From the NCBI GenBank assembly GCA_041567215.1, contig JBFGRR010000001.1, positions 1-32,755 of the forward strand: a DNA stretch of 32,755 nt. The letters are read 5' to 3'. Positions within the stretch are counted from its first letter, which is position 1, and each line of letters opens with the position of its first letter. Below are positions 11,636 through 32,385 of this stretch, in pieces. The notes beneath the pieces were generated by a model. That model ran no database searches. It was not told the origin of the DNA and was given only the letters and a program-made list of their open reading frames with translations. The position numbers and the translations under genes were made by a program. The DNA is from Acidimicrobiia bacterium. GTDB lineage: Bacteria; Actinomycetota; Acidimicrobiia; Spongiisociales; ZC4RG35.

Positions 11636-11646
11636 ATCCGCTCCGT

Positions 11647-16263: not shown

Positions 16264-16964
16264 GTCAGGCTCCTGTGTTCGTTCAGGTAGGTGGCCAGGG
16301 AGGCCACCAATTCGTCAAAGCGAGGGGTGGCGGGAACTACATGCGGCAGATGTCCGACAGCCTCGAGAGAGGCGGCGGTGGTCCGGCCGATCGCGGCGGT
16401 GACGAGGCCGTCGAGACTCCTGGACGACAGCCAACCGTCCACCGCCGACGGCGAGCCGAATACGACGGCGTCGACCTCGTCATGGGACGGAGCAATCGGC
16501 AGGGTTTCGTACACCCAACCGCTGGATAGTCGGGCGCCGGACCCGAGGAGAGCGGCGAGTGTCGATGGGTCGGCCATCCGGGCATGCGGGTACACGACGG
16601 ACGCGCCCTGGATGACCTCCGTGAGGCGATCCACGAGACCCGACGCGCCGCCGCCTCCCACCAAAGCCACCGAGCCGCCGGCCTGGCTCGCAGCCGCCGC
16701 CGTCCGGGAACCTACTGCTGCGACGCGAGGGCGCCCCGGCATACGCCCGCTAGGCCAGAGGACGTCGACGACCCGGCTGGATGTGAGAACGATCCAGTCA
16801 CACCGCTCGGCCTCGCCGCGGAGATGGGAGATCGTGTCAGCCTCTCCGGGAGACACCTCTATGCATGGAAGAAACACGGGGTCGAGGCCCGCGGCGGCTA
16901 GATCAGCGCCGATGCGTGCCGCCGGGACCGGTCTCGTCGTTGTGACTGCTACTCGAGGGCTCAC
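16260..16964 (-). CDS. hemD: uroporphyrinogen-III synthase
   Basis: 234 aa from GTG at 16964 (GTGA overlap with the hemC stop). VAVTTTRP...DWIVLTSSRVVDVL...VAAVGSRTAAA is HemD-like, and the position between hemC and hemB fits. The upstream 180 aa of the track ORF are an Arg-rich shadow. Confidence 0.75.
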   Translation of the reverse strand: MSPRVAVTTTRPVPAARIGADLAAAGLDPVFLPCIEVSPGEADTISHLRGEAERCDWIVLTSSRVVDVLWPSGRMPGRPRVAAVGSRTAAAASQAGGSVALVGGGGASGLVDRLTEVIQGASVVYPHARMADPSTLAALLGSGARLSSGWVYETLPIAPSHDEVDAVVFGSPSAVDGWLSSRSLDGLVTAAIGRTTAASLEAVGHLPHVVPATPRFDELVASLATYLNEHRSLT

Positions 16965-17818
16965 AAGGCCAGCTCCGCGACGAGTCTCCGGGCCGCTTCG
17001 TCGGGTGTCGCGCCGCGGGCAGATCCACGCCGTGGGCCTGCACCATCGTGCACGAACCCCCGGAGGTGAATGTCTCGACCGACGATCTCGCCGACCACGC
17101 CCAACGCAGCTCGGCAGCCTGCGCCGGTGAGCGAGAGCACGGAACGCTCGGCCTCGACGACGAGCCTCGTCTTCGGCTCGTCGATCGCAGCCACGAGCGA
17201 GGCCGCGTGGCCCCCGGGCGCCACCTCGACAGCTATGGCAGCCTGGGCGGGTGCAGGCACCATCTCGTCGATGGTGAAGCGGTGGGTGATCGCGCCCTCG
17301 AGGCCGAGCCGGCGCAGACCCGCCTCGGCGAGGACGACGGCCCGGTACTCCCCGGATGCGACCTTCGCCAAGCGCGTCTCCACGTTTCCTCGGATGTCTT
17401 CGACGATCAGATCCGGACGCAAGGCGGCAAGTTGCGCAGCCCGCCGGGGACTCCCGGTACCGACCTTGGCGCCGGAGGGCAACTCGCTCAGGCCACCCCC
17501 ACACAGCACGTCCCAGGGCGCCGCCCTCTCCGGATAGAAGACTTCGAGCCCGCCGGGGCCCTCAACCGGCAGGTCCTTACATGAGTGAACCGCGACATCC
17601 GCCTCACCACTCAAGACCGCCTCCTGGACGGCGCGCACGAAGGCGCCCAACTCGGTGAGGGATGTGACTGGTGAGCGCCGGTCACGGTCACCCGATGTCA
17701 CGATCTCGACGAAATCTATCGATAGCCCCGGGTGAACGACCGCGAGCCTCTCGGCGATCCGTCGGGATTGCGCCAGAGCCAGGTTCGATCTCCGAGTGCC
17801 GATCCTCAGGTCAGCCAT
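16961..17818 (-). CDS. hemC: hydroxymethylbilane synthase (porphobilinogen deaminase)
   Basis: 285 aa from ATG at 17818 (MADLRIGTRRSNLALAQS). Contains HSCKDLP, GTGSPRRAAQL, RGNVETRL and the cofactor Cys in TGAGCRAALG. 8-nt overlap with the hemA stop. Confidence 0.9.
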   Translation of the reverse strand: MADLRIGTRRSNLALAQSRRIAERLAVVHPGLSIDFVEIVTSGDRDRRSPVTSLTELGAFVRAVQEAVLSGEADVAVHSCKDLPVEGPGGLEVFYPERAAPWDVLCGGGLSELPSGAKVGTGSPRRAAQLAALRPDLIVEDIRGNVETRLAKVASGEYRAVVLAEAGLRRLGLEGAITHRFTIDEMVPAPAQAAIAVEVAPGGHAASLVAAIDEPKTRLVVEAERSVLSLTGAGCRAALGVVGEIVGRDIHLRGFVHDGAGPRRGSARGATPDEAARRLVAELAL

Positions 17819-18962
17819 CCACGATCCCGAACGCAGCTGCCAGGACTTCCGTAGCCTGCTCGGGCCCGCCTCCGGAACGTAGATAGGAAACCGGGTTGGC
17901 GAGGAGCGATCGAGCGACCGTGTGTGCTGCCTGACGGAGAACTGCATGATCTTCGCCATTCCCCAGCTTGGTCGCGAACCGATCGACCGCCCTCTCGACG
18001 AGATCATCTGCAGCTCGCATCATCTCGGCAATCACCGGGCCGACCGCGGCATGTTCGGTCATACGACGGTGTGCATCCGCAGCGTGGGCGGCAACGAAGT
18101 CATCTGCCTCATGGGGACGAGGTCGGCGGGCGGCGAGACGAGCCAGGTCATCGATGCTCACATACTTCACCGCGGCGTGGGGTGGAACATCGAAATCGGG
18201 TGGCATCGCCATGTCGACCAGCGTGAGGGGGGTGGTCCGCCGGCTGAACACACTGTCGAGCGTCGTGCCATCGATCAAACGCCGCTTCGCCGAGGTCGCA
18301 GATACCACCGCGCCGAAACGCTCGATGGCCTCGATGGCGCGGTCGAAGCCCCACACCTCCATTCCGGCGATGGCGACCTTCTCGGGAGAACGCGCGACAA
18401 CGGTCACCCGCGGCGGGGCGGGCAAGCTCAGCAGCCCCATGATCACGGAGTTCGCCATGATCCCGGAACCGAATACGGCGACCTCCTCTGCCGTGCCGAC
18501 GACCTGGGCCGTGACGGCGGCAAGCGAGCTGTGAGGCGAACCGGGCAACATCTCCCTTGCCTGCCTTCCGACCGACACTGCCGTTTCGAGGAGCTTCGAG
18601 AAGAGGCCGCCCACGTCACCACGGGCCTCGGACACTTTCAGTGCGTGCCGGAATTGGGTCAGGATCTCCATCTCGCCCAGCACGGGCGATTCGAGACCCG
18701 CGGCCACGCGAAAGAGGTGTGATACCGCGTCCAGGTCCTGGCGAACCGCGGCGGCTCCAAGCACCGACGCGTCTCCGAAAATGGCCGACACAGCACGCGA
18801 CAGGTGGTCTGCTCCCCCCTCGACCGCCACCTCGATCCGAAGGCAAGTAGACAGCACGAACGATCCTGGAACCGACTTGGGTCTTCCCAGCTGCTCACTC
18901 AGACGGGCTCGAACGGTCTCGTCACAGTTCGGATATGCGAAGCTGGCCGCCGCGATCCTCAC
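17811..18962 (-). CDS. hemA: glutamyl-tRNA reductase
   Basis: 383 aa. Contains STCLRIEV (active-site Cys), AAGLESPVLGEMEILTQ and the NADPH-binding VAVFGSGIMANSV. GTG start at 18962 is preceded by GAGGAGGGAG. Confidence 0.9.
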   Translation of the reverse strand: MRIAAASFAYPNCDETVRARLSEQLGRPKSVPGSFVLSTCLRIEVAVEGGADHLSRAVSAIFGDASVLGAAAVRQDLDAVSHLFRVAAGLESPVLGEMEILTQFRHALKVSEARGDVGGLFSKLLETAVSVGRQAREMLPGSPHSSLAAVTAQVVGTAEEVAVFGSGIMANSVIMGLLSLPAPPRVTVVARSPEKVAIAGMEVWGFDRAIEAIERFGAVVSATSAKRRLIDGTTLDSVFSRRTTPLTLVDMAMPPDFDVPPHAAVKYVSIDDLARLAARRPRPHEADDFVAAHAADAHRRMTEHAAVGPVIAEMMRAADDLVERAVDRFATKLGNGEDHAVLRQAAHTVARSLLANPVSYLRSGGGPEQATEVLAAAFGIVDG

Positions 18963-19035
18963 GCCTTCGCTCCCTCCTCGTTGCTGAAAAAAAGCTACCC
19001 AACGGGTGTTTCAACGGCGAGTCGGAAAGTGGCCG

Positions 19036-19920
19036 TCAGGCCCAGTCCACAGGAGCCGCCAGCAACAAGCCCTGCGTCGCCGACTCCTGACTATCCGACT
19101 CGGGCTCGAAGGAATCGTCCCAACGGGCTCGCGGCGGCAACGACGCCAGAATCGATTCGGTCCGCCCCCCTGTCTCGAGGCCAAAGCGCGTGCCCCGGTC
19201 CCAGATGAGATTGAACTCGACGTATCTGCCCCGGCGCAGCTCCTGCCAATGTCGCTGGCGAGCACCGTGTTCCAGGACGATTCGACGTTCCAGGATGGGG
19301 CCGTAGGCGGCAAACAGGCTGTTCCCGAGGTCCTTTTGGAACGCCCAGACTTCGGCGAGTCTGTCGTCGAGGTGGTCGAAGAAGATCCCGCCGACACCGC
19401 GTGCCTCGCCGCGATGCGGAAGATAGAAGTACTGGTCACAGGCCTGCTTCCACGCCCCGTGGTCGGCAACTGCGTGGCGGTCACACACCTCCTTGAGCTT
19501 CTCGTGAAAACCTCGGGCATCTTCTTCGAAGAAGTAGCACGGTGTGAGATCGGCACCACCGCCAAACCAGGCCGCCGTGCCGCCATCCGCCTCGAAGTAA
19601 CGCAGATTGGCGTGGAAGGTGGGCGCGAACGGGTTGCGGGGATGGACGATTATCGAGACGCCCGACGCATAGAAATGGTCGCCGGCCGCGGCGAGACGGT
19701 CCGACAGCATGGTCGGGGTGCTGCCCCAGACTGCCGAAAAGTTGACGGCGGCCTTCTCGATGTGGCGCCCCTCGGTGAGGATACGAGTATCCCCGCCCCC
19801 TCCGCCGGGCCGCGCCCAGACCTCGGAGACGAACCCCGTCGACCCGTCGACAGCCTCGATCGCGATGCAGAACCTCTCCTGCAGCCCCCGGTACCACGCC
19901 TCGATGTCGGACTTCTTCAC
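19036..19920 (-). CDS. hemF: oxygen-dependent coproporphyrinogen III oxidase
   Basis: 294 aa. Contains IEKAAVNFS, VHPRNPFAPTFHANLRYFE, WFGGGADLTP, YLPHRGEARGVGGIFFD and GRYVEFNL. GTG at 19920 forms a GTGA overlap with the hemH stop. Confidence 0.9.
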   Translation of the reverse strand: MKKSDIEAWYRGLQERFCIAIEAVDGSTGFVSEVWARPGGGGGDTRILTEGRHIEKAAVNFSAVWGSTPTMLSDRLAAAGDHFYASGVSIIVHPRNPFAPTFHANLRYFEADGGTAAWFGGGADLTPCYFFEEDARGFHEKLKEVCDRHAVADHGAWKQACDQYFYLPHRGEARGVGGIFFDHLDDRLAEVWAFQKDLGNSLFAAYGPILERRIVLEHGARQRHWQELRRGRYVEFNLIWDRGTRFGLETGGRTESILASLPPRARWDDSFEPESDSQESATQGLLLAAPVDWA

Positions 19921-20945
19921 CCTGTTGCCTGAACCATCTCTGCAACGGCTCCAACCCAGGTCGGAGTGGCGTTGACGCAGGGAACCAAGAGCATCTCCTC
20001 ACCACCGAGACCTTCCCATTGGGCGCGGCCGCGGATGCCGATCTCCTCCAGGGTTTCGAGGCAGTCCGCAGTGAAGGAGGGTGTGAGCACCGCGATCCGA
20101 CGCACTCCCCTCTCATACAAAGCAGGCAAGACCCTGTCGGTGTATGGCTCGATCCACTTCTGCCCCGCCAGCCTCGACTGGAACGAGGTGGAGTGAGCAC
20201 CATCCTCGAGATCCAGCTCCGCCGCGAGACCCCGAGTGGTCGCGTAGCACTGAGCCCGGTAACAGAAACGGTTGTCGCCGACGATCCCATCACAACAGGC
20301 ATCCGTCGCCAGGCACCACCCCTTGGAGGTGTCACCCCGCCTGACCTGTTTCTCGGGAAGACCGTGGTAGCTGAACAGGGTGTGGTCGGGCCGGAAACTG
20401 CTGAGGAGTGGCCTGGCCACCGCAGCGGCGGCCTTCAGGAAACCCGGGTGGTCGTAGAACGCACCCAGGACGCGGATCTCGGGTATGTTCCAGCCACCTG
20501 CCAGCAATCCCAGCGTCTTCTCCACCGCCGATCCGCCGGCTGCCGATGCGTACTGCGGGAAGAGTGGGAGCACGATGATTCGCCGGCATCCAACCAAGGC
20601 ATCCAGAGCCTCTTCTATCGAGGGATTCCTGTAGCGCATGGCGTACACGACGCGGTACGTGTCGCCGACGACACTCTGAACCCCGGCCGAGAGAGCCGCC
20701 GTGTGGAGAGTCAACGGAGACCCATCTTCGGTCCAGATCTTCTCGTAGGCCTCGGCTGAGCGTCGAGGCCGGAAGGGGAGTATCACGGCATTGAGCAGGA
20801 GGGCCCGGGCCGGAGCGGGCATGTCGAGCACTCGAGGGTCGGAGAGGAACTCGCGCAAGTACCTACGCACATCCGGCACGGATGGAGAATCGGGAGTCCC
20901 CAATTGCAGCAGGAGTACGCCGGTCAAGTCACGTGATGATGACAT
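19917..20945 (-). CDS. hemH: ferrochelatase with an internal Cys-rich insertion
   Basis: 342 aa from ATG at 20945 (MSSSRDLTGVLLLQLGTPDSP). An alternative ATG at 20987 would add 14 aa. Contains FSYHGLPEK, FQSRLAGQKWIEPYTD and FTADCLETLEEI. Confidence 0.9.
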   Translation of the reverse strand: MSSSRDLTGVLLLQLGTPDSPSVPDVRRYLREFLSDPRVLDMPAPARALLLNAVILPFRPRRSAEAYEKIWTEDGSPLTLHTAALSAGVQSVVGDTYRVVYAMRYRNPSIEEALDALVGCRRIIVLPLFPQYASAAGGSAVEKTLGLLAGGWNIPEIRVLGAFYDHPGFLKAAAAVARPLLSSFRPDHTLFSYHGLPEKQVRRGDTSKGWCLATDACCDGIVGDNRFCYRAQCYATTRGLAAELDLEDGAHSTSFQSRLAGQKWIEPYTDRVLPALYERGVRRIAVLTPSFTADCLETLEEIGIRGRAQWEGLGGEEMLLVPCVNATPTWVGAVAEMVQATG

Positions 20946-21065
20946 GAGGGGGCAACCTATCCCGTGGAGGCGCCAAACGGAAGTCATCCCCGCCGCGGCA
21001 GACCCGCACCGTCATCGGCAACGCAGATCGTCCACGGCTGCCGGCACGCCCTAACCTCCCCCGCC

Positions 21066-21347
21066 ATGGCTATCAAGAAGATGCTCGGTGTGCTGCTGAT
21101 AGCGATCACGCTGTCGGCGTGCGCCCCCGGGACCGACTCATACAGCTCGGACGACCGCGCCGGGTTCTTCAGCGGTGTCTGGCATGGCTGGATCGCCCCG
21201 GTGACGCTGGTGTGGCAGATCTTCGACGACGAAGTCCGCGTCTACGAACCCGACAACACCGGTTGGTTCTACGACTTCGGCTTCTACATCGCAGTGATCA
21301 GCGGCTTCGGCTCCATCCGGCTGTTCAGGCGCGACAAGAAGGACTGA
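21066..21347 (+). CDS. small putative lipoprotein, unknown function
   Basis: 93 aa from ATG at 21066. MAIKKMLGVLLIAITLSAC is a signal peptide with an LSAC lipobox. A second hydrophobic stretch lies near the C-terminus. No clear SD. The track start at 20964 (GTG) adds an implausible 34-aa leader. Confidence 0.55.
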   Translation: MAIKKMLGVLLIAITLSACAPGTDSYSSDDRAGFFSGVWHGWIAPVTLVWQIFDDEVRVYEPDNTGWFYDFGFYIAVISGFGSIRLFRRDKKD

Positions 21348-22429: not shown

Positions 22430-22966
22430 TCACTCCTCTTCGAGCATCTGCAGCAGCCGGTCGCGCACCGACTCACCAGGTTGGCGCGCCGGGGTGTCGG
22501 AGATGCGCCAGCCCTTGCGCGACGAATAGGTCAGTGCGGGCTCCTTCAGGCGCCCCTCGCCGACTTCCACGACCTCGCCGAACAGCAGCTGGTGATCTCT
22601 GATCGGAAGACGGTCGGAGACGACGACCCGCATCCATCCGACGCAGTCCCTCACCACCGGATTGCCACCGATGACCTCGATGTAGTCGCCAATGTGCTTG
22701 AACCGCCGGCCCGGATAGCTGAAGTACTGCGCCGGTTCGATCTGGTCACCCGCCAGCAGCGAGACGGTGAACCAGCCTTCCCGCTCGATGAGGGGGAAGG
22801 TGTCGTGCTTGGGGCTGATGCTGATCCCGACGATCGGATCTTCGAAGCTCAGCTGGTAGGTCCAAGTGGAGGTGTAGGCGCGGGTCACCCCGTCGCTCGT
22901 GCAGGCAACAACGTTCACGCCATATGTGAACTGCCCGATCACCCTCTTCAGGCCTGCCTCGATCAT
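22430..22966 (-). CDS. flavin reductase-like (FMN-binding split-barrel) domain protein
   Basis: 178 aa from ATG at 22966. VIGQFTYGVNVVACTSDG..AYTSTW...SISPKHDTFPLIEREGWFTVSLL resembles the flavin reductase domain. The track start at 23104 would run through the upstream terminator. Confidence 0.75.
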   Translation of the reverse strand: MIEAGLKRVIGQFTYGVNVVACTSDGVTRAYTSTWTYQLSFEDPIVGISISPKHDTFPLIEREGWFTVSLLAGDQIEPAQYFSYPGRRFKHIGDYIEVIGGNPVVRDCVGWMRVVVSDRLPIRDHQLLFGEVVEVGEGRLKEPALTYSSRKGWRISDTPARQPGESVRDRLLQMLEEE

Positions 22967-23019
22967 CTGCTCATCTTCGCCGGGAACCGGCGCGTTGCCC
23001 AAATATCCTGGGCGCGCGA

Positions 23020-23046
23020 AAAGGGGCCGGCAATACCGGCCCCTTT
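23020..23046 (-). terminator. intrinsic terminator hairpin after the repeat-protein gene
   Basis: Perfect 11-bp inverted repeat AAAGGGGCCGG / CCGGCCCCTTT with a 5-nt loop, 21 nt after the stop at 23067. On the minus strand the stem runs into TTTT. Confidence 0.6.
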
Positions 23047-23066
23047 CCTCGACTGTGAATCTCGAC

Positions 23067-23888
23067 TCAGGTGTCCTGCTCGCCCTTGATGACGGCCTTG
23101 ACACCGCCGACGCCCGAGGCGGCTACGTCGCGCACCGCGTGGACAGCCTTCTCGCCGATCGACTCGGCTGCCTCGAAGGCACCCGACGCCGCTGCAGAAG
23201 CGGCATCCTCGAGAGAGAGGCCGACCTCTTTGGCACCGGCGATCGCTCCGGCGATCGCCCCGCTGGTCACGCCGATGACGTCGACACCCAGGTCGCCGGC
23301 ACCCTTGACGAGCCCGCGAGCGGTGTTGCGGATGGCGCTGAGCGCATCGCCACCGATCTCGGCGGTCCCCCGGACGGCCCCGGTCACGGTTGCGGTGGCA
23401 GTTCCGATCATGTCGGCGCCGAGGTCCTTGGCTCCACCGATGACCGAGCTGCCCAGCGTGAAGGCGCCGTCTGCAAGGCTGACGCCGGTGGACTTGGTGG
23501 CGTTGATCAGGCCCTCGGCGATCCCGCCGACGGTCTGCGTCACGTCGCCACCGATGGCTCCGGTCCCCTTGAGAGCTGCACGCACGACGTCGGAGAGAAC
23601 CCCGACCGTGACCGTGGCTACTTCGCCGACACCCTGGAGTACGCCGATCACGACACCCTTGGCGGTGCGGACCACTCCGGTCCCGACCTCGCCAACCGCG
23701 GTGAACGCACCGGTCACGACATCGCTGACCGTGGAGCTGATCGTCGTTGCGACGTCGCCCACACCCTTCACCGCGGTCACGACCGCATCACGGGCAACAT
23801 CCGCTGCACCGGTGACGATCGATCCCGTGCCCTTGAGCAGACCTGTGATGCTCTGCCGCACCCGTCCGCCAGCACTTCCTTCTGTCAT
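23067..23888 (-). CDS. hendecad-repeat protein (23 x 11 aa), unknown function
   Basis: 273 aa from ATG at 23888, with GGAAGGAG 6 nt upstream. The third codon position is predominantly G/C in this frame. The gene has its own terminator. The track ORF (to 24350) adds 154 Arg/Pro-rich residues antisense to the LuxR gene, and I reject that extension. Confidence 0.75.
   Translation of the reverse strand: MTEGSAGGRVRQSITGLLKGTGSIVTGAADVARDAVVTAVKGVGDVATTISSTVSDVVTGAFTAVGEVGTGVVRTAKGVVIGVLQGVGEVATVTVGVLSDVVRAALKGTGAIGGDVTQTVGGIAEGLINATKSTGVSLADGAFTLGSSVIGGAKDLGADMIGTATATVTGAVRGTAEIGGDALSAIRNTARGLVKGAGDLGVDVIGVTSGAIAGAIAGAKEVGLSLEDAASAAASGAFEAAESIGEKAVHAVRDVAASGVGGVKAVIKGEQDT
23088..23846 (-). repeat. 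33-bp periodic coding array (23 units), diverged at the DNA level
   Basis: The translation parses without gaps into 11-mers: TGLLKGTGSIV / TGAADVARDAV / VTAVKGVGDVA / TTISSTVSDVV / TGAFTAVGEVG / TGVVRTAKGVV / IGVLQGVGEVA ... ASGVGGVKAVI. Hydrophobic or small residues recur at positions 3, 4, 7, 10 and 11. Confidence 0.8.
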
Positions 23889-23935
23889 CTCGCACTCCTT
23901 CCGTCTCGGCCGATCTGGCCTCCTGGGACCACCAT

Positions 23936-24028
23936 CGCACGGCAGGTGCGGTCCGTCCATGACCACCAGCGAGGTTCGCCCGACAGGATTCGGGCAGGAA
24001 TCTGCCAGGCGCTTGGCAGGCGGCTGCC
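23936..24028. promoter_or_regulatory. cluster of palindromes in the divergent intergenic region (candidate operators)
   Basis: GGCAG-gaat-CTGCC lies at 23993..24006 and GGCAG-gcgg-CTGCC at 24015..24028, exactly 22 bp apart. A third GGCAG (23941..23945) sits at the centre of CGCAC/GTGCG (23936..23950). CCCGA-N6-TCGGG lies at 23979..23994. Confidence 0.35.
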
Positions 24029-24053
24029 GGATCCGGCGCGGTAGCCTCGCCCC

Positions 24054-24665
24054 ATGCGAAGGCGTATCGGGGTCAGCGGCGGCAGCACAACCTGGCGGCG
24101 CGGCATGATGGCGATCCTCGAGGACGCGGGCTTCACCGCGGTCGACGTCCCGGAACTCGACGAGTTCCAGCCGGGACGAGATGGGGTGGCGGTGGTGCTC
24201 AGGTCGGACTCGACCGATCTGGGGGAACCGCTGGAGCACGTTCGAGACGAGTATCCGGCCATCCCGATCATCGTGTCTGCACCCGAACTCGACCTCGGCG
24301 CGTTCGCATCGATGATCCGGGCAGGGGCGGCCATGGCCATCGACGACCACACCGACGTCGACTACTACGGGGTCATCGTCGATGCAGCGCTCAAAGACCG
24401 AGCCTCGGTCCCCAGGGAACTCCTCGCAGCGCTAGCCGCCCGGATACCGGCGACCCCCGAATCGTCGGCCTGGGTCACCGACACCGAAGCGGGTTGGTTG
24501 GTCGCCCTGGCCGAAGGGACCACCGTCGCCGATCTCGCCAACCGGGACGGCTATTCGGAGCGAGAGATGTTCCGCCTGCTCGGAAACACCTACAAGCGGA
24601 TCGGCGTGGAGAACCGCACGGAGGCGATCATCTGGGCCACCCGCCACGGCCTGCTCGACGGCTGA
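24054..24665 (+). CDS. LuxR/GerE-family regulator with an atypical (degenerate) receiver-like N-terminal domain
   Basis: 203 aa. The C-terminal GTTVADLANRDGYSEREMFRLLGNTYKRIGVENRTEAIIWATRHGLL is a GerE-type HTH. The N-terminal roughly 120 aa have beta-alpha periodicity like a receiver but lack the usual acidic pair (VSGGS). There is no SD before ATG 24054, so the mRNA may be leaderless. Confidence 0.8.
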   Translation: MRRRIGVSGGSTTWRRGMMAILEDAGFTAVDVPELDEFQPGRDGVAVVLRSDSTDLGEPLEHVRDEYPAIPIIVSAPELDLGAFASMIRAGAAMAIDDHTDVDYYGVIVDAALKDRASVPRELLAALAARIPATPESSAWVTDTEAGWLVALAEGTTVADLANRDGYSEREMFRLLGNTYKRIGVENRTEAIIWATRHGLLDG

Positions 24666-24681: not shown

Positions 24682-27051
24682 CTAGACCACCACGCTCACG
24701 GAGGCGGTCCCAAACACCCCACGAGCCTCCAGCTCCAGCGCCCCGGTGGCATATGCCCAGTCCCCCCGATCCACGTCCCACCATCTGAGTTGGTCGAGGG
24801 CGACCTCGATGTCCAGAGCTGTGCTTTCACCGGGGTCGAGGTGGCGCTTCTGAAAGGCCACCAGCCGTCGATTCACTCCGCCCAGGTCTCTCGCATACAC
24901 CTGGACCACCTCGGCGCCGTGGCGATCACCGGTGTTCGCGAGGTTCGCCGTCAACTTCACCGCACCGTGACCCGAGGCGGCTGCGAGGTCCGACAGCTCG
25001 AAGGAGGTGTAGGACATCCCGTGGCCGAATCGGAACAGCGGCTCGAGACCGGCGCGATCGAATGCCCGGTAGCCGACGTGGATCGAGTCGTCGTAGTGGA
25101 TCTGGCCGTCTTTGCCGGGCCACCCGGCCAAGGACGGATGCTGGGTCGAGTCGACCGGGAAGGTCACCGGCAGCCGGCCACCAGGATCGGAGCGGCCCAA
25201 GAGCACGTCGGCGATCGCCGCGCCAGCCTCCTGGCCGCCGTACCAGACGTGCAGAACGGCCCTGACGTCGTTCAGCCAGGGCATCTCGAGCGCCGACCCA
25301 CCGGTCAGGACGACAACCGTGTTGGGCTGGGCAGCGGCGACCTCGGCTATCAGCCGGTCCTGATCGCCGGGCAGTCGCAGATCGGGCCGGTCGAAACCCT
25401 CGCTCTCCCACTCTCCGTTGAGGCCGGCCACCACGATGGCAACGTCGGCCTCGGATGCCGCTGCCACGGCCTCCGCGATGGGATCGTCCGTCCCGGGTAC
25501 CAGGCACCCGACTCCCAGCCAGCGCCAGCGCTCGCCAGGGACTGACGCGTACTCGACGGTCAACGCGACGGCCTCACCCTCGGACATCTCCAGCTGCCAG
25601 GCGTGGGGACCGACACCACTCCCCTCCCATTCGTCGACGACCTGAGATTCGCCGGCCCAGACCCGCAGTCTCCCCGCTCCAGAGGCGACGAAGGTGTGGA
25701 CACCCGCGGCGTCGGCCCGGTATTCGCCCGACATGCGCACCGAGAAGTCGTCGTGATCGACCCATTCGTCGCCATCGCCGAAGAAGGCGAGGTAGGTCTT
25801 GGGTGTGGCCAGCACTCGCACCGGCTCGTCGCCCGGCGACCGCCCGCGAAAGTACTCCACGAGGAAACCGGAGGCACCATCGCCGTGGCTCAACCGCGAT
25901 GCGTCCAACTGCGGAGGGTTGCGATGACTGGCGCAGCCAAAGGACCAGGTGACCGTGGTGCCTGCGGGGACGCTGGAGCGGATTCCGTCCAGTATCGAGA
26001 CCACCCTGTGAGCGTTGACAGCCGAGCTTCCCCCGCCCTGGTGGGGTGTGTTCTTCGCTCCCTCGCCGATGACCGCAATCGTTCTCTCGGCCGCAAGCGG
26101 GAGCGCGCCGCGGTTGGTCAGCATGACGATCGACTCCGCGGCGACCTTGCGGGAGAGGGCCCGGTCGCCGTCCCGCTCGTCCGCCCGCTCGGCATCGGCT
26201 CGCGGCTGGGTCCGCTCGATCAACTCGAGGATCCTGGCCACCTTGCGGTCGATGTCGGCCTCCTCCACCGCGCCCGACTCCAGCCCGGCCCGGATGTTCT
26301 CTTCGGACATCCAGCGAGCGGGACCGGGCATCTCCAGGTCCAGACCCGAACTCACCACGCCCGGCCCGTAGGTTCCGAACCAATCGCTGATCACGGCACC
26401 GTCGAATCCGAAGTCGTCGCGGAGAACATCATCCAGCAGCGGGTTCTCGGACGCGGTCACGCCGTTGATCGTGTTGTAGGCCGACATGGCGGCCCAGGGT
26501 TTCGACTCCTCGACAGCGATTCGAAACGGTTCCAGATATACCTCTCGAAGGGCCGCTTCGTCGACGCGAGCGTCGATGGTGAACCTGTCGGTTTCCTGGT
26601 CGTTGCAAACGAAGTGTTTGATGCAGGCCCCGACGCCCTCGGACTGGATGCCCCGGATGTATCCGGCCGCGATGCGACCCGAGAGATACGGATCCTCGGA
26701 GAAGCACTCGAAGTTGCGCCCTGCATTGGGCACCCTGGGGATGTTGACAGTGGGGCCGAGGAGCACCGAAGCCCCCTTCGCCCGGGTCTCGTGAGCGAGC
26801 GCTCGCCCCACGGACTCGATGAGGTCTGGGTCGAAGGTGGCGCCCATCGCCGCCCCGACGGGGAAACTGGTCGATGTGGGACCGTGGTTTCCGTCGGCGC
26901 CTCTGGCGCCGTTCGGTCCGTCGGTCACCTTCAGTGCCGGGATGCCAAGCCGCTCCACGGCACGGGTCTCCCACAAGTTGCTTCCCGAGAGAAGACCCAT
27001 CTTCTCTTCCATCGTCAACGCTCCGAGCATCTCTGCAACCCAGTCACTCAT
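24682..27051 (-). CDS. glycoside hydrolase family 3 beta-glucosidase with a PA14-like insertion, cytoplasmic
   Basis: 789 aa from ATG at 27051 (MSDWVAEMLGALTMEEKMGLLSG). Contains KVTDGPNGARG, KHFVCNDQE and GFDGAVISDW (nucleophile Asp motif). An insert of about 125 aa lies between the two GH3 domains. No signal peptide. 8-nt overlap with the upstream stop. The track start at 27213 is an over-extension. Confidence 0.9.
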   Translation of the reverse strand: MSDWVAEMLGALTMEEKMGLLSGSNLWETRAVERLGIPALKVTDGPNGARGADGNHGPTSTSFPVGAAMGATFDPDLIESVGRALAHETRAKGASVLLGPTVNIPRVPNAGRNFECFSEDPYLSGRIAAGYIRGIQSEGVGACIKHFVCNDQETDRFTIDARVDEAALREVYLEPFRIAVEESKPWAAMSAYNTINGVTASENPLLDDVLRDDFGFDGAVISDWFGTYGPGVVSSGLDLEMPGPARWMSEENIRAGLESGAVEEADIDRKVARILELIERTQPRADAERADERDGDRALSRKVAAESIVMLTNRGALPLAAERTIAVIGEGAKNTPHQGGGSSAVNAHRVVSILDGIRSSVPAGTTVTWSFGCASHRNPPQLDASRLSHGDGASGFLVEYFRGRSPGDEPVRVLATPKTYLAFFGDGDEWVDHDDFSVRMSGEYRADAAGVHTFVASGAGRLRVWAGESQVVDEWEGSGVGPHAWQLEMSEGEAVALTVEYASVPGERWRWLGVGCLVPGTDDPIAEAVAAASEADVAIVVAGLNGEWESEGFDRPDLRLPGDQDRLIAEVAAAQPNTVVVLTGGSALEMPWLNDVRAVLHVWYGGQEAGAAIADVLLGRSDPGGRLPVTFPVDSTQHPSLAGWPGKDGQIHYDDSIHVGYRAFDRAGLEPLFRFGHGMSYTSFELSDLAAASGHGAVKLTANLANTGDRHGAEVVQVYARDLGGVNRRLVAFQKRHLDPGESTALDIEVALDQLRWWDVDRGDWAYATGALELEARGVFGTASVSVVV

Positions 27052-30000
27052 CCGCTTCCTCCTGTGAGAACTCGACGGTGAAGACGACCTTCGAGATCGA
27101 CCCATCGGACGCGAAGATCGATGCAGATGATCCCTCGTCGAGGACAGCACCCGTCCGGTGCTTGGCGCGGCCATCGGCGTACAGGACCTCCACCGACGAC
27201 TGCGACCCTGCATGTAGCTCGACAGGAACCCGGCAGACGGTGAGTCTCGCAGGCGTCGTGCCCATCAGTTCCTCGGCCGGAAGCAGCCCGGGCTCGACGG
27301 CAATACGACCGGCGATCACCCGGAGGCCGATCTCCCCCATACGGGTGAGGATCTCCTCCTTCACCTGACCGGTCATGCCCGGTTGCTGGGCGCCTGCGTG
27401 CGCCGGTGTGTGCGAGTAGCAGTCGGTGGGTATGGCGCCGTAACTCTCAGGGTCCTTTCCGAACCCGAGGCCCGATCTGACCTGCCGATACAGCACAGCG
27501 AGCCGGGCGCCGGCGTCCGAGGCCCCGGCTGCGACCGAGTCGCGGTACACCTCCTGCACGGCCAGCAGGAGCTTGGCCACCATGTGCCAGTAGACGGAAC
27601 CGATGCCTTCGTACCCGTACATCGCGCCGGAACGACCGGTGAAGGAGTGGTGGCGAAAGACCTGCTCGTATACATCGGAGACGAGATCGCGAACGCGCCC
27701 GTCACATCCGGACGCGTCGAGGGCCGCCTCGAGGGCAGGGCGGTTGATGAGCCCCTTGGCGAAGTGCAGCCCGCCGCCAGAGTCCCGCGTCAGCACGGAG
27801 CCGATCAGCGGCTCCAATACCGGATGGGCGTCGAGTAGCCCCTGGGGAAGTTCGTTGCGATCGAGGAACGACGGGAGGCGGCGCGCTGGATAGAGCATGA
27901 ACGAGTGCTGATCGGGGCGATACATCTCCGAGGCGTAGAGGGCATCGATGACATCGGCGCACACGGCAGGGTCGAGCGCTCGCGACGAGAGAGCGGCGAC
28001 CTGGCCTTCGAGCATCGGACCCAAGCGGTCGACCGAGGCTGAGAGGTCATCCGGGAATCCCACCAGGTTGTACGAGTCGAACAACCCGTCAGGCCTGCGA
28101 GCAGAGGCAATCGAGGCCCGCAGATGTCGAAGGGCCGTGTCACAGAACCGCTCGATCGAGGCGGAAGTCACCGCGACCATCGGTCTGGAGAACTCGCTCG
28201 GCACAGCGGTCCGGTAAGCGGAGCCGACCGCCCCGAGAGCATCCATCATCTCCCGCCTCTTGGCGTCGTCGACGTTGCCATCGAGCGTCGATCCTTCGAA
28301 GCCCTCCAGAACGGCGGTCAGATCGGACAACCAGCGAGCCACCGGTACGGACATCATCAGCGGCTCTCCCGCGGGAAGACCCTTGATGTAACGCAGATAG
28401 CGGTGCAGGTAGAAAAGGGTCACCATCGAGAGCCCGTATCCGGCCAGAGCGTTGTTGGCATCGTTCCATTCCGGCCTCTGCGTGTTCATCCAGATGCCGC
28501 CGTGCGGAACGAACGCTGTGATCTTCGCGAGGGCAGGAACGAGGAGCTTCTCCATGAGTCCCACCCTCACCAGGCGGCCATCGGCACCGAACGTGAGCCG
28601 CCCATCCGTGCCGATCGCGTCCACCCGGCGTTCGATTTCACCCTGGCGTTCGTAGTCGAAGGAGATCGTGTTGCGGGGGTTGCTCACCATGGTCTCGTGG
28701 CCGGCGAGCACGTAGGGAACGTCGGCGTAGGTGAAGACCGGACGGCTGAGCCATGGATGGATACCACCGGGGTCGAACGCCTCCCACCCCTCGAGAAGCC
28801 GCAGCAGGTAGACGATCTGATGGTCTCCCCAGTAACCGATGTTGCTCCACGGATCGTCGGGTTCGGGGATCTCCCAATCGATTCCGTTTCTGGTGATCCG
28901 GTACGGGTTGTGGCCGTCCGCGGTCGACGCGTTCACGAACTTGGCCACGACGTTCGCGAAGTACCCGGGATACGAGTGGAGGAGCGCCTCCCAGTTCTGG
29001 AAGATGTCCCTCCAGTTGCCCTCGTAAAAGAGCAATTCGCTGCCGTCTGCGGCTTGCGTCATGATCGAGAAACGATTCCATGGGCGGCTCGGGTCGCCGT
29101 GTCGCCTAGAGAAGGTGAGGGGCAGATACTCGAGCACCATGCGGATCAGGTCCGGATCACCGCTCGAAAGCGCGAGCGATCGGAGCACCTCCAGATCGAC
29201 CCACTCCCCGAGGCCGCGGATCTCGTCGCCATGAGAGGCGAAGACGGCCCGATTCCGGGTGCCGATGAAATCGAGAAGATCGGCGACCGGCAGCCGGTAG
29301 ACATGGGGAAACACGCCACCCCGCATGCAGTTGAAGAGGACGTTGGAGAGATGGTGGGCATCAGCCACCCGGTCGCCCGTCGACTGAAATGCGTCCGCAC
29401 CGGCGAGGAGGATCCTCAGACGGTCGTTGCCCGAAGCGATGTCACCGCGGACCCGGACGACGGCGTCAGGGGTGGCCGCGAAGCGGACCCGGTCTCGGAG
29501 CGTCGCATGGCCGAGTCCGGTGTCGGCGACGATCGTCCACGAAACCGCATCGCCCGGCTCGACCTGGACGGCACCGCGAAGCAGGTAAGAGCCGCGGCGT
29601 CCAGTGAGTAGGTCGGTGGGAGGGTGGCCCCGTCCGTGGAGCATCGCCGCGATCACACGTTCGTCGAGGTGGATCTCGGCGTCCCATCCTGCCGACCACA
29701 CGAGCGTCGAAGCCAGGGCTTCTGCCGGCTCGGCGCGGTCGCTGACGAGCGACTCGAGAGAAAAGACACCGGCCGACCCCCACCGGCCCGTCTCGGATCG
29801 CTTGTAGGCGTCGACGAGATTGGATGAGACCTGTTCCATACCTGCGTCCACCCCGGCGGGCATCACATCGAGAAGACCATCGAGCACCTCGAGAGTGGCG
29901 CCCCCGGAGTCGATGTTCACGATCTCGGAGGTCCGCACCCAGCCGTTGTCGCGAGATGGCTCCCACGTCATCCGGAACTGGAGACCCCAGACCGCGTTCG

Positions 30001-30388
30001 TCTCTTCGAACACGATCCTGTTGCCGAGCACGCTCTTCGACACGGCCCTGGTGCACCCTTCGCCCACAACGGGCCCGAGCGGTCGCCAGAGCAGGCGAGA
30101 CCCATCCACGACGCGGGCCACCACCGTGACCGGTCCGGTGATTCCCGCCGCCCGGTGAATCCGGTCGTCGGTCTCATAGGGGAAGAGGGCGTTGTCGCGG
30201 TCGATGCGGCCGGCGGTCAGGGCGGTGGTGCTCGAGACGAACATCCACAGGTCACAGTCCGACACGACGCTCATCAAGAACGGCTCCATGTTCTCGAGCC
30301 CTTCGATGCGGTAGTGCTCGATGCCGTCGACGGTTGTCAAGCCGCCGGCGACGGGAGTACGCCCGGTGCTACGCGTCTCCAGATCCAT
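27044..30388 (-). CDS. large uncharacterised protein (1114 aa), possibly an (alpha/alpha)6-barrel glycoside phosphorylase/hydrolase-like enzyme
   Basis: One continuous ORF. ATG at 30388 forms TGATG with the upstream GH3 stop, and GGAGG lies 11 nt upstream. The GTG at 30400 used by the track has no spacing to the SD. No signal peptide, TM segment or P-loop seen. Motifs GNWRDIFQNWE (about 28988-29017) and RPEWNDANNALAG (about 28451-28474). Confidence 0.8.
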   Translation of the reverse strand: MDLETRSTGRTPVAGGLTTVDGIEHYRIEGLENMEPFLMSVVSDCDLWMFVSSTTALTAGRIDRDNALFPYETDDRIHRAAGITGPVTVVARVVDGSRLLWRPLGPVVGEGCTRAVSKSVLGNRIVFEETNAVWGLQFRMTWEPSRDNGWVRTSEIVNIDSGGATLEVLDGLLDVMPAGVDAGMEQVSSNLVDAYKRSETGRWGSAGVFSLESLVSDRAEPAEALASTLVWSAGWDAEIHLDERVIAAMLHGRGHPPTDLLTGRRGSYLLRGAVQVEPGDAVSWTIVADTGLGHATLRDRVRFAATPDAVVRVRGDIASGNDRLRILLAGADAFQSTGDRVADAHHLSNVLFNCMRGGVFPHVYRLPVADLLDFIGTRNRAVFASHGDEIRGLGEWVDLEVLRSLALSSGDPDLIRMVLEYLPLTFSRRHGDPSRPWNRFSIMTQAADGSELLFYEGNWRDIFQNWEALLHSYPGYFANVVAKFVNASTADGHNPYRITRNGIDWEIPEPDDPWSNIGYWGDHQIVYLLRLLEGWEAFDPGGIHPWLSRPVFTYADVPYVLAGHETMVSNPRNTISFDYERQGEIERRVDAIGTDGRLTFGADGRLVRVGLMEKLLVPALAKITAFVPHGGIWMNTQRPEWNDANNALAGYGLSMVTLFYLHRYLRYIKGLPAGEPLMMSVPVARWLSDLTAVLEGFEGSTLDGNVDDAKRREMMDALGAVGSAYRTAVPSEFSRPMVAVTSASIERFCDTALRHLRASIASARRPDGLFDSYNLVGFPDDLSASVDRLGPMLEGQVAALSSRALDPAVCADVIDALYASEMYRPDQHSFMLYPARRLPSFLDRNELPQGLLDAHPVLEPLIGSVLTRDSGGGLHFAKGLINRPALEAALDASGCDGRVRDLVSDVYEQVFRHHSFTGRSGAMYGYEGIGSVYWHMVAKLLLAVQEVYRDSVAAGASDAGARLAVLYRQVRSGLGFGKDPESYGAIPTDCYSHTPAHAGAQQPGMTGQVKEEILTRMGEIGLRVIAGRIAVEPGLLPAEELMGTTPARLTVCRVPVELHAGSQSSVEVLYADGRAKHRTGAVLDEGSSASIFASDGSISKVVFTVEFSQEEADE

Positions 30389-32385
30389 CAGGAGTCGCAC
30401 CTCCCCACCGTGCCGAGCGGCTCACCATCAGTCGAAAGGCCATAGCCGAAGGGGTATCTGGCGCCATCACACGAACCCATCTGGAGGCTCCCCAGGGCTT
30501 CGATGGAGGAGGGCCACGTGTATGGGAGCACGCCTGCGAAAGCCTCTTCACCTGTCAGCACATCGACGATCCCAGCACCCTCCGAACCGGGCAGCCAGGC
30601 AACCACCAGGGCATCGGCGCTGTCAAACTCGGGCCCCAGCACCAGCGGACGCCCGGTGATGAGGACCACCACCAGCTTGTCCACCTTTGGCCGCATCCGG
30701 CGGATGACCTCCACCTCCGAGCCCGGCAGCATCAGCGACTCGCTGTCGCCTCTCCCCTCGGCGTAGGGCCGCTCACCGACGACGGCGATTCCCAGCGGAG
30801 CGACATCCGTACGGTTGTCGAACTTCCCGAAGCGGTCGTACTCGATAGTGGACGACACGGCGGTGAGGGCGTCGAAGATGCTCGTGCCACCGGCGACGTC
30901 GCCCGAGTCGCCCTGCCAGCTGATGGTCCATCCGCCCGACTGGATACCAACGTCATGTGCGGCTGCACCACCGAGAAGGACCGTGCCTCCGTCTGTGTCG
31001 ATCGGCAGTGTTTCGCCATCGGTCTCGAGAAGGACCATCGATCGGGCCACCGCTCGGCGGGCAAGCGCCCTGTGCTCATCGGAACCGACAGATGCGAGTA
31101 GATCGGACGTCGGCATCGGCGACTCGAAGAGGCCCATCGCGAACTTCACCCGGAGGATCCTCCGCACCGCCTCGTCGATGCGCTCCTCGATGACGTCCCC
31201 CTGGGTCACGGCCCCGCGCAGCGCCCTGATGAAGAGCTCATACTCGGAGGGCACCATCACCATGTCGATCCCGGCATTGACGGACTGGACGATCGAGCCG
31301 TACAGATCGCCCGGTTTGACCTGATCGACTGCGGCCCAGTCGGAAACCACGAATCCGTCGAACCCGAGCTCTCCACGGAGCATGTCGGTGAGCAGATAGC
31401 GGTCGCCGTGGACCTTGCCGTTCTCCCAGCTGGAGTAGGACGCCATGACCGTCACCGCGCCGGTTTCGAATGCGGCCAAGTACGGGTATACGTGGACAGA
31501 GCGGAGCTCGTCCTCGCCCGCCAGTGTCACACCCTGGTCGATCCGGTACACCGTCGAGGTGCCCCAACCCGTGCCGCCGTCTCCCACGAAATGCTTGGGT
31601 GTGGCGACCACGGCCGTGTCTTCGGCGAGATCTGCACCCTGAAGGCCGCGGACGACAGCCGCTCCAAGCAGGGACACGAGCTCCGGATCCTCGCCAAAAG
31701 CCTCATAGGTCCGACCCCAGCGGACGTCCTGCGGGACGGCGAGGACCGGTGAGTAGTTCCAGCGAATCCCGGTGGCGGCCGTCTCTTCGGCCGTCGCCCT
31801 GGCAATCTCCTCTACGAGAACGGGATCCCTCGTGGCTCCCAGCCCCACGTTGTGCGGAAAGATCGTGGCTCCGCGCAGATTGTTGTGGCCGTGAACGGCA
31901 TCCACCCCGTAGATGACCGGGATTCCCAGCCGGGTGGCGAGGGCGGCGTCCTGAAAGGCCCCGACCATCTCGCGCCAGGCTTCGGGGTTGTTGGGGCGGG
32001 GCGTGCCTCCGCCCCCGCTGAGCAGCGCACCGATCGCGTACTCACGCACCTCTTCCGGGCTGATGGACCCTTTCTCGACGAGGGTCATCTGCCCGAGCTT
32101 CTCGTCCAGCGTCATCCGGCCGAGCAGGTCCTCGACGCGCTCGTCGACCGGAACCGACGGGTCCAGGTAGGCGGGATCGGCGGCGGTGGCAGCGGTGGTT
32201 GCCGGGACTTCGACCGTGGTAGTGGTGGTGGACTCGCTACCCGACCCACAGGCAGCCAAGGCGACCAACGCCGTGAGCGCTCCGGCCACCACTCCGGAGC
32301 GAACACGGCGACGGTCGGACCCGGACCGGGACTCGAGTGGCCCGTCCGGGTCATCCCCGGGAGGAATCGGGGAGGTATTGGTCAT
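30388..32385 (-). CDS. glycoside hydrolase family 3 (exo-beta-glucosidase/glucan beta-glucosidase type), predicted lipoprotein
   Basis: 665 aa. SDRRRVRSGVVAGALTALVALAAC is a signal peptide with an LAAC lipobox and an RRR stretch. Contains LDEKLGQMT, YGVDAVHGHNN, IFPHNVGLGATRD and GFDGFVVSDW. ATG at 32385 forms an ATGA overlap with the upstream stop. Confidence 0.9.
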   Translation of the reverse strand: MTNTSPIPPGDDPDGPLESRSGSDRRRVRSGVVAGALTALVALAACGSGSESTTTTTVEVPATTAATAADPAYLDPSVPVDERVEDLLGRMTLDEKLGQMTLVEKGSISPEEVREYAIGALLSGGGGTPRPNNPEAWREMVGAFQDAALATRLGIPVIYGVDAVHGHNNLRGATIFPHNVGLGATRDPVLVEEIARATAEETAATGIRWNYSPVLAVPQDVRWGRTYEAFGEDPELVSLLGAAVVRGLQGADLAEDTAVVATPKHFVGDGGTGWGTSTVYRIDQGVTLAGEDELRSVHVYPYLAAFETGAVTVMASYSSWENGKVHGDRYLLTDMLRGELGFDGFVVSDWAAVDQVKPGDLYGSIVQSVNAGIDMVMVPSEYELFIRALRGAVTQGDVIEERIDEAVRRILRVKFAMGLFESPMPTSDLLASVGSDEHRALARRAVARSMVLLETDGETLPIDTDGGTVLLGGAAAHDVGIQSGGWTISWQGDSGDVAGGTSIFDALTAVSSTIEYDRFGKFDNRTDVAPLGIAVVGERPYAEGRGDSESLMLPGSEVEVIRRMRPKVDKLVVVLITGRPLVLGPEFDSADALVVAWLPGSEGAGIVDVLTGEEAFAGVLPYTWPSSIEALGSLQMGSCDGARYPFGYGLSTDGEPLGTVGRCDS

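Follow-up and report, generated by a model that had tools for sequence, protein, structure and literature searches.

A 22-residue amphipathic helical-repeat protein from Acidimicrobiia and its unnamed bacterial family

The window analysed here is a stretch of 32,755 nucleotides from an Acidimicrobiia bacterium (GenBank assembly GCA_041567215.1, contig JBFGRR010000001.1), and its minus strand carries a gene for a 273-residue repeat protein. A first-pass annotation, made from the sequence alone, had read this protein as an uninterrupted, proline-free array of 23 hendecads from a family that it could not name. We find here that the gene is genuine, codes for protein and is under purifying selection, and that its product is a member of a so far unnamed family of bacterial proteins, for which there is no Pfam or NCBIfam model. 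The 11-residue phase of the first-pass reading stands, but the true unit is a 22-residue helix-turn in which the two hendecads are not equivalent. In its physical design the protein is like the apolipoprotein, perilipin and synuclein class, yet it is a member of none of those families.

A 22-residue repeat maintained at the protein level

A scan of the GTDB species representatives yielded eight orthologues of the repeat gene, all in metagenome-assembled genomes (MAGs) of Acidimicrobiia and with 58-86% identity. The nine sequences are 273-274 amino acids (aa) long and align without internal indels. The repeat-protein frame is the sole one of the six that is free of stops in all nine, 59% of the nucleotide differences fall at its codon position 3, and the dN/dS among the orthologues is 0.05-0.32. 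The Shine-Dalgarno sequence GGAAGGAG, described before as strong, has AGGAG-type counterparts at the equivalent place in the nine loci, where the start codon is conserved too. These data also bear on whether the expressed product could instead be one of two overlapping plus-strand open reading frames (ORFs; 22899-24044 or 23071-24108), the periodic protein being then an antisense artefact of GC-rich DNA. Both plus frames are indeed open across the region in the window, but they are interrupted by stops in most of the eight orthologues, and it is the minus-strand protein that has 346 homologous clusters (see below). The comparative data already refute the wrong-strand reading, to which we attach practically no weight. 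In the public collection, 90 blocks hold contigs that encode a protein identical to that of the window, and the four places examined, all in NCBI MAG assemblies (GCA_0416...), keep the same order of genes.

The protein (25.7 kDa) is acidic, with an isoelectric point (pI) of 4.9, and its grand average of hydropathy (GRAVY) is +0.53. It contains 51 Gly, 46 Ala, 42 Val and 28 Thr, and no Pro, Cys, Trp or Tyr at all; with the frequencies of 12 other genes of the window (Pro, 5.7%), the chance of such an absence in 273 aa is about 5e-14. Expressed as fractions, 19% of the residues are Gly, 32% beta-branched, 17% charged and 1.1% aromatic. As previously claimed, the sequence parses without indels into a 14-aa head and 23 units of 11 residues, followed by a 6-aa tail, and the pattern expected of an 11/3 amphipathic helix is present, with hydrophobic or small residues at hendecad positions 3, 4, 7, 10 and 11. 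The Fourier spectrum of the Kyte-Doolittle hydrophobicity displayed one sharp peak at 3.67 residues (that is, 11/3) with a power of 374 (z about 48); over 2000 shuffles the power averaged 7.9 (sd 7.7) and never exceeded 53. In the autocorrelation of residue identity, lags 22 and 44 were strong (z 5.4 and 6.5, respectively) and lag 11 reached only z 2.4, so that the repeat of the sequence itself is a 22-mer.

In the register G-x-[G/K]-[D/E]-[IVL]-G-x-D-h-h-x-x-A-x-x-V-V-x-G-A-V-K, each of the about twelve units consists of a Gly-rich turn (G-x-G-D-V-G) plus a helix. The best-conserved positions of the 22-mer in the nine orthologues are Gly 1, 6 and 19, and 31 of the 51 Gly are invariant across the nine species; the Gly-rich turns keep the phase between the 22-residue units. 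Since each unit amounts to two hendecads, every helix bears the same Ala/Val/Ile/Leu stripe. When the DNA of the gene was examined with Tandem Repeats Finder, no 33- or 66-nt array was detected and the direct repeats were only short and weak. It is thus at the level of the protein that the periodicity is kept, as proposed from the divergence of the DNA units. The sequence analysis likewise agreed with the first-pass annotation in detecting neither a transmembrane-like segment nor a hydrophobic N-terminal segment or signal peptide, and the protein is therefore taken to be cytoplasmic and not secreted.

Relatives, domain fusions and gene neighbourhoods

When the window protein was scanned against Pfam and NCBIfam no model covered the repeat, and the sole Pfam match was to Phasin_2 (residues 228-267; 22.3 bits, E 1.6e-4), below the cut-off of 24.9 bits. 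No well-characterised family thus claims the protein, PADLOC gave no match to any defence system, and our literature search found no description of this repeat family, whose members, when looked up, bore solely the source name "hypothetical protein". HMMER was run exhaustively over 1.84 billion representatives, with clusters defined at 50% identity, and disclosed 346 related clusters at E <= 1e-3; at E <= 1e-10 there were 50. Sixty members were compared with Pfam and NCBIfam and gave scattered sub-threshold matches to Phasin_2, Senescence, Chlorosome_CsmC, Perilipin, Synuclein, DUF883 and BMFP, all of them amphipathic-helix families. Besides Acidimicrobiia, relatives were found in MAGs of Nitrospirota, Verrucomicrobiia (Verrucomicrobiota), Deltaproteobacteria/Thermodesulfobacteriota and Binatia (Desulfobacterota/Binatia), and Dehalococcoidia (Chloroflexota). 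A metagenome scan confirmed at least 213 relatives among the first 600 matched stretches, with many soil and sediment sources, and all the contigs and genomes recovered here for the family are metagenomic.

The phasing is kept across these homologues. A hydrophobicity maximum at 3.62-3.72 residues was present in 151 of 159 family sequences, so that the first-pass reading holds on this point. The same is apparent in the lengths. The distance from the N-terminal motif xxKGTGDI to the C-terminal motif GVKVVLK was determined in 113 distinct members and was 157 residues in 65 of them and 245 residues in 10 (Acidimicrobiia), with other classes at 113, 135 and 267 residues. All these values equal 3 modulo 11, and the steps between classes (-44, -22, +88 and +110) are multiples of 22. 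There is one large exception, a class of about 296 aa with a step of +117 (110 + 7, a heptad-like stutter); in these members (L017-L032, from MAGs of Deltaproteobacteria, Binatia and Nitrospirae) it is an internal duplication that adds the 117 residues. The C-terminal motif, G-V-K-V-V-L-K-E-P-F-K in its full form, is strongly conserved family-wide (for example in L018 8001-8918, P0016 and P0020) and holds the only proline. Its counterpart in the window protein is GGVKAVIKGEQDT, and it could serve in capping, sorting or interaction.

In five of the 60 scanned relatives (P0031, P0046, P0088, P0114 and P0080), the repeat domain lies N-terminal to a Virul_fac_BrkB domain (YihY/BrkB family, PF03631). 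The relationship of these extensions to the repeat protein is one of true homology, P0031 being colinear with residues 3-259 of the window protein at about 30% identity (E 2.3e-12). The window protein differs in being free-standing, with no transmembrane segment or BrkB match, and the window has no BrkB gene of its own. In E. coli, the YihY/BrkB paralogue YhjD has been linked to the export of a lipid A precursor. An Arg-rich linker precedes the first transmembrane helix of P0031 and, by the positive-inside rule, the repeat domain of this protein would be cytoplasmic. Fusions to receiver domains were also found, N-terminal in P0001 and C-terminal in P0052 and P0054, and one repeat-BrkB fusion is followed by a receiver gene 174 nt on. 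The receiver/repeat fusion P0001, 48% identical to the window protein, is encoded in a cluster (L001, 6476-9329; MAG GCA_007118565.1 and related contigs) where the gene of a KaiC-like double-domain ATPase ends 1 nt before it and a patatin-like lipase gene is convergent downstream. This cluster may represent a phospho-signalling module with the repeat domain as its output.

Clustering of the neighbours over about 110 loci disclosed no universal partner. At one Deltaproteobacteria/Binatia locus (L018), a separate BrkB gene is convergent with the repeat gene and lies 133 nt downstream, and genes of these two kinds are adjacent in five or six related loci of these groups. In Verrucomicrobiia the neighbours are an OsmY-like protein with three BON domains and a small transmembrane protein, and MscS and an MlaC-OmpA fusion also occur as neighbours; the envelope or lipid flavour of these lineage-specific neighbours is weak evidence. 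Stand-alone receiver genes clustered in eight loci, but this is probably due to chance because such genes are abundant and most were 1.5-6 kb away. In the window, the repeat gene is followed on the same strand by a flavin reductase gene, a pirin gene and then a nearly complete haem-biosynthesis cluster, and other Acidimicrobiia carry a RimK-like ATP-grasp gene downstream instead, so that there is no conserved operon partner. Readings of the protein as gas-vesicle, encapsulin or microcompartment cargo were discarded, as no such genes occurred in any neighbourhood.

Predicted fold and possible role

AlphaFold2 (AF2) modelling with a 40-sequence alignment gave a predicted local distance difference test (pLDDT) score of 75 and a predicted TM-score (pTM) of 0.70, and 60 sequences covering the whole length raised these values to 89.5 and 0.82, respectively. 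The best model has 12 helices of 14-26 residues (ten of 17-19), with loops mostly of 3-4 residues, and the five models span pLDDT 67-89.5. The isolated chain is accordingly modelled as a two-layer alpha-solenoid of about 12 helices with the geometry of designed helical repeat (DHR) proteins, a prediction to be read with the caveat that 19% Gly and 32% beta-branched residues are unusual for a stable soluble helical protein. The model, being helical and periodic, leaves the first-pass finding standing, but it shows 12 short stacked helices and not one long surface helix. A Foldseek search of the PDB matched 8cws and 8cwy with a TM-score on the query (TMq) of 0.74-0.76 and a root-mean-square deviation of 3.5 A over about 280 columns, and DHR4 (5cwb) with a TM-score on the target (TMt) of 0.66. 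The best natural proteins, importin-alpha and catenins, had TM-scores below 0.3, and a fold search of BFVD gave nothing at E <= 0.001. The DHR proteins (DHR4, and the arms in 8cws and 8cwy) have the stacked helix-loop-helix-loop units of a two-layer solenoid, as the predicted model does, and they were also the top PDB sequence-profile matches of the family. However, that profile search found only designed repeats and one tape-measure protein, and its matches are therefore compositional. Moreover, DHR proteins are artificial, with 12-18% identity, no evolutionary relation and helices rich in Leu, Glu, Lys and Arg, and the likeness rests on the predicted model.

To place the protein among known amphipathic-helix proteins, residues 15-267 were treated as one 3-11 helix, which gave a hydrophobic moment (muH) of 0.319 (0.077 at 100 degrees per residue). 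By the same method alpha-synuclein 1-89 gave 0.297, the published value being 0.30, and the published moments of Plin4, Plin3 and apoA-I are 0.257, 0.35 and 0.39 (PMC5889406). Plin4, which is rich in Thr, Gly and Val, has 0.6% aromatic residues and is built of indel-free 33-mers (PMC5889406), shares with the repeat protein the tandem repeats in multiples of 11, the Gly/Thr/Val/Ala-rich composition with nearly no aromatics, a similar charged fraction (0.15, and 0.17 here) and a weak but very long coherent 3-11 moment. Nevertheless, there is no detectable homology and the units differ (33 residues in Plin4 against 22 with Gly-rich turns). Plin4 has a positive net charge and is unfolded in solution, whereas the repeat protein is negatively charged, more hydrophobic and, according to AF2, a folded solenoid; it is also bacterial, just 273 aa long, and without a PAT domain or 4-helix bundle. 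The Perilipin model (PF03036) did not match the window protein, and the one match among the 60 relatives (E 0.003) is insignificant over 60 proteins and about 25,000 models.

With the exchangeable apolipoproteins (apoA-I, A-IV and E, and apolipophorin-III) the protein shares tandem 22-residue (2 x 11) amphipathic helices punctuated by helix breakers, and their closed helical stack that opens on lipid is the paradigm for the model proposed below. In contrast, apolipoproteins are secreted, use Pro as punctuation and have class A helices rich in Leu, Glu, Lys and Arg, while the repeat protein lacks Pro and a signal peptide and uses Gly-rich turns and the small residues Ala, Val, Gly and Thr. None of the 60 scanned family members matched the Pfam apolipoprotein models. 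The resemblance to alpha-synuclein that had been noted in the first pass holds for the composition, with a Gly/Val/Thr/Ala-rich core, as well as for the 11-residue periodicity and the 3-11 moment, but does not extend to homology. An hhalign comparison of the family profile with human alpha-synuclein gave a probability of 0.8%, and the window protein did not match the Synuclein model (PF01387). Furthermore, alpha-synuclein has about 7 hendecads, not 23, it carries a KTKEGV motif that is absent here, and its basic repeat region is followed by an acidic tail, whereas the repeat protein is acidic throughout and predicted to be folded. The phasins (Phasin_2, PF09361) have amphipathic Ala-rich helices too, and two other relatives match this model weakly (P0003, 17.1 bits), but the sub-threshold match of the window protein covers 40 residues of a 100-position model and there are no polyhydroxyalkanoate (PHA) genes nearby. 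To our knowledge, phasins have no strict 22-residue array. A reading as a type I antifreeze protein was also considered and rejected, since Thr is not restricted to one hendecad position.

We believe, with a probability of roughly 40%, that the repeat protein is a cytoplasmic, membrane-proximal amphipathic solenoid, a relative of the N-terminal domain carried by some YihY/BrkB proteins, and that it serves as a scaffold or coat which may switch between a closed stack and an open, lipid-bound form. The membrane or lipid surface proposed in the first pass remains plausible and has indirect support from the YihY/BrkB fusions. The window protein would be the free-standing version of a cytoplasmic module that elsewhere is fused to the N-terminus of YihY/BrkB or to receiver domains, and, since the module is so fused, its most likely site of action is the membrane, on the cytoplasmic side, where it would form a reversible amphipathic scaffold or coat. 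In its soluble state it would be a closed helical stack, and in its lipid state the coherent 3-11 hydrophobic stripe would be laid on the surface, as in the exchangeable apolipoproteins and apolipophorin-III. Several points weigh against this interpretation. The gene neighbourhood is not a conserved one in the family as a whole, and, with about 110 loci to choose from, many on short contigs, the envelope-related neighbours may have been picked out selectively. The BrkB neighbours are convergent, and therefore not co-transcribed, and the loci that carry them are closely related to each other. There is no membrane-related partner in the window, the downstream genes being those of the flavin reductase and the pirin. 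The negative net charge is unfavourable for anionic bacterial membranes, and a period of 3.67 is automatic for any strict 22-residue helix-turn repeat and is no proof of a continuous 3-11 surface helix. Finally, AF2 tends to idealise repetitive helical sequences, which qualifies a model whose pLDDT ranged over 67-89.5 and was 75 with the shallower alignment.

The confident AF2 solenoid would fit a purely soluble scaffold equally well. Such a protein would be a rigid interaction platform, comparable to ARM, HEAT or DHR proteins, for receiver domains or KaiC-like ATPases and without lipid contact, and we regard this as a possible, if less probable, explanation. Besides the clear DHR-like geometry, the conserved Gly and the AxxxA/GxxxG-like spacing are what tightly packed helices typically show, some relatives have a receiver domain at one end or the other, and a KaiC-like ATPase gene lies next to that of P0001; however, for a soluble scaffold the hydrophobicity is unusually high and the charged fraction low, and the recurrent fusion to a polytopic membrane domain argues against it. 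It is unlikely that the protein is the coat of an inclusion, with a long 3-11 helix, weakly hydrophobic, poor in aromatics and rich in Gly, Thr, Val and Ala, covering triacylglycerol, wax-ester or PHA bodies in the manner of perilipin-4, phasins or chlorosome envelope proteins. The parallel with Plin4 in composition, indel-free repeats and moment, the sub-threshold family matches to Phasin_2, Perilipin, Senescence, Chlorosome_CsmC and Synuclein, and the patatin-like lipase gene adjoining P0001 would fit this idea, yet no such Pfam match passes the threshold, no PHA synthase, wax-ester synthase or lipid-body gene was present in any neighbourhood, the membrane-domain fusions point to the cytoplasmic membrane and not to inclusions, and conserved Gly-rich turns every 22 residues, together with the AF2 fold, are at odds with one continuous helix.

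The role in desiccation that the first-pass annotation had contemplated fares worse. A protectant like the group-3 late embryogenesis abundant (LEA) proteins or hydrophilins would be disordered when hydrated and form amphipathic helices on drying or freezing that shield membranes and proteins. Although the 11-residue periodicity, the high Gly content, the osmotic-stress flavour of some neighbours (the OsmY-like protein, MscS) and the origin of the family matches, mainly from soil, sediment and sand-filter metagenomes, could be cited in its favour, hydrophilins are strongly hydrophilic and the GRAVY of +0.53 (family median, +0.08) argues against it; in addition, none of the 60 scanned members matched LEA_4 and AF2 predicts a well-packed fold, all of which makes it very improbable. 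Even less credit is due to the idea of an intermediate-filament-like protein or of a tetrabrachion-type fibre formed by a long right-handed coiled coil of hendecads. The hendecad pattern is coherent over about 250 residues, but it is broken by conserved Gly clusters every 22 residues, the core residues are small (Ala, Val, Gly), the AF2 model has helices of about 19 residues and no long uninterrupted one, and no coiled coil of the PDB was matched in the profile or Foldseek searches.

Most known amphipathic proteins with hendecad or 22-residue repeats (apolipoproteins, perilipins, synucleins, LEA proteins) are eukaryotic, and the results presented here define a sizeable bacterial family, with at least 346 clusters at 50% identity, in which length changes are quantised in 22-residue steps. 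Should the predicted fold be confirmed, a geometry matched in the PDB only by man-made helical repeats would also be natural. The YihY/BrkB fusions provide a testable functional lead for a widespread, uncharacterised family of membrane proteins. A bolder and rather doubtful version of the membrane-proximal interpretation is that these proteins form a new bacterial class of switchable amphipathic solenoids, at once a natural counterpart of DHR proteins and a cytoplasmic bacterial apolipoprotein whose closed stack, packed through Gly, Ala and Val, would open to lay a 38-nm 3-11 stripe on the inner membrane, working with YihY/BrkB and controlled by receivers. If this were true, it would be the first functional handle on the YihY/BrkB family; if the protein were a plain soluble scaffold, the outcome would be a tidy new repeat family and little more.

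Divergent regulator, local signals and other features of the window

The features of the gene and its flanks are summarized in Table 1.

Table 1. Repeat gene, divergent regulator and candidate signals in the window.
Feature	Position	Strand	Remarks
CDS, 273-aa 22-mer (2 x 11) amphipathic helical-repeat protein	23067..23888	(-)	ATG start; range includes the TGA stop
Shine-Dalgarno sequence GGAAGGAG	23895..23902	(-)	6 nt upstream of the repeat-gene ATG
GC-rich stem-loop, probable intrinsic terminator; GGGGCCGG stem, then UUUU run	23018..23048	(-)	18 nt past the stop
Conserved motif GTCATGGAC (repeat-gene strand)	23955..23963		about 70-75 nt upstream of the ATG; by eye in 8/9 upstream regions
Two adjacent TGGCAG-N4-CTGCCA palindromes	23992..24029 (23992-24007, 24014-24029)		candidate operator for the regulator
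TAGCCT, TANNNT -10-like hexamer	24042..24047	(+)	6 nt before the regulator ATG
Divergent NarL/FixJ-type response regulator (receiver + LuxR/GerE helix-turn-helix), degenerate acidic pocket	24054..24665	(+)	identified by ortholog profile

The divergent LuxR-type regulator reported in the first pass is present, and its ortholog profile matched NarL/FixJ-type regulators over the full length (ChrA, 4yn8, E 2.5e-13, then DevR and VraR). It is head-to-head with the repeat gene in eight of the nine Acidimicrobiia loci (the match of the L010 ortholog to GerE being weak), but this arrangement is not conserved across the wider family. The acidic pocket reads RIGVSGG, GG standing where receiver domains usually have DD, and the orthologues share this replacement. 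With the DD so replaced, the regulator is probably an atypical, pseudo-receiver type that works independently of phosphorylation. The two palindromes of the window have one mismatch each and are 22 bp apart, and exact TGGCAG-N4-CTGCCA copies were found in six of the eight orthologous intergenic regions (L009-L015) and nowhere else among the 43 loci compared. In Acidimicrobiia, the regulator would probably control the repeat gene through these palindromes. The GTCATGGAC motif is possibly a promoter element. On the opposite strand, orthologues have TACGCT or TAGCCT at the position of the -10-like hexamer, which, from what is known of actinobacterial promoters, suggests a leaderless transcript for the regulator.

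The hairpin that the first-pass annotation took for a terminator proper to the repeat gene is stable (-30.6 kcal/mol, z -3.15), and none of 200 shuffles folded as well. Hairpins of 11-16 bp, each of a different sequence, follow the stop codon in the nine orthologues, which suggests that a terminator or stabiliser is conserved here. The strict pattern scan for promoters and terminators, however, called nothing in the window, not even this hairpin, because its U-run is short and lies partly within the stem.

Elsewhere in the window, the haem cluster (10310-20987, minus strand) holds a nearly complete pathway, with a HemY-like amine oxidase (protoporphyrinogen oxidase), a radical-SAM HemN/HemW-like protein, HemE, HemL, HemB, HemD, HemC, HemA, an oxygen-dependent HemF and ferrochelatase. 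It has, therefore, both oxygen-dependent and radical-SAM-type coproporphyrinogen enzymes. A small ORF (20964-21347, plus strand) lies between the genes for the pirin and the ferrochelatase, on the strand opposite to theirs; it has 127 aa in the ORF listing but 93 aa according to the gene calls of the MAG, a high GC content at third codon positions (0.84) and no Pfam match. A larger ORF of about 1114-1118 aa (27044-30400, minus strand), with no Pfam match at E <= 0.001, is flanked by two genes for beta-glucosidases of glycoside hydrolase family 3 (24682-27213 and 30388-32385). Since the ends of these three genes overlap they probably form one operon, and the product of the ORF may be an uncharacterised large glycan-related protein.

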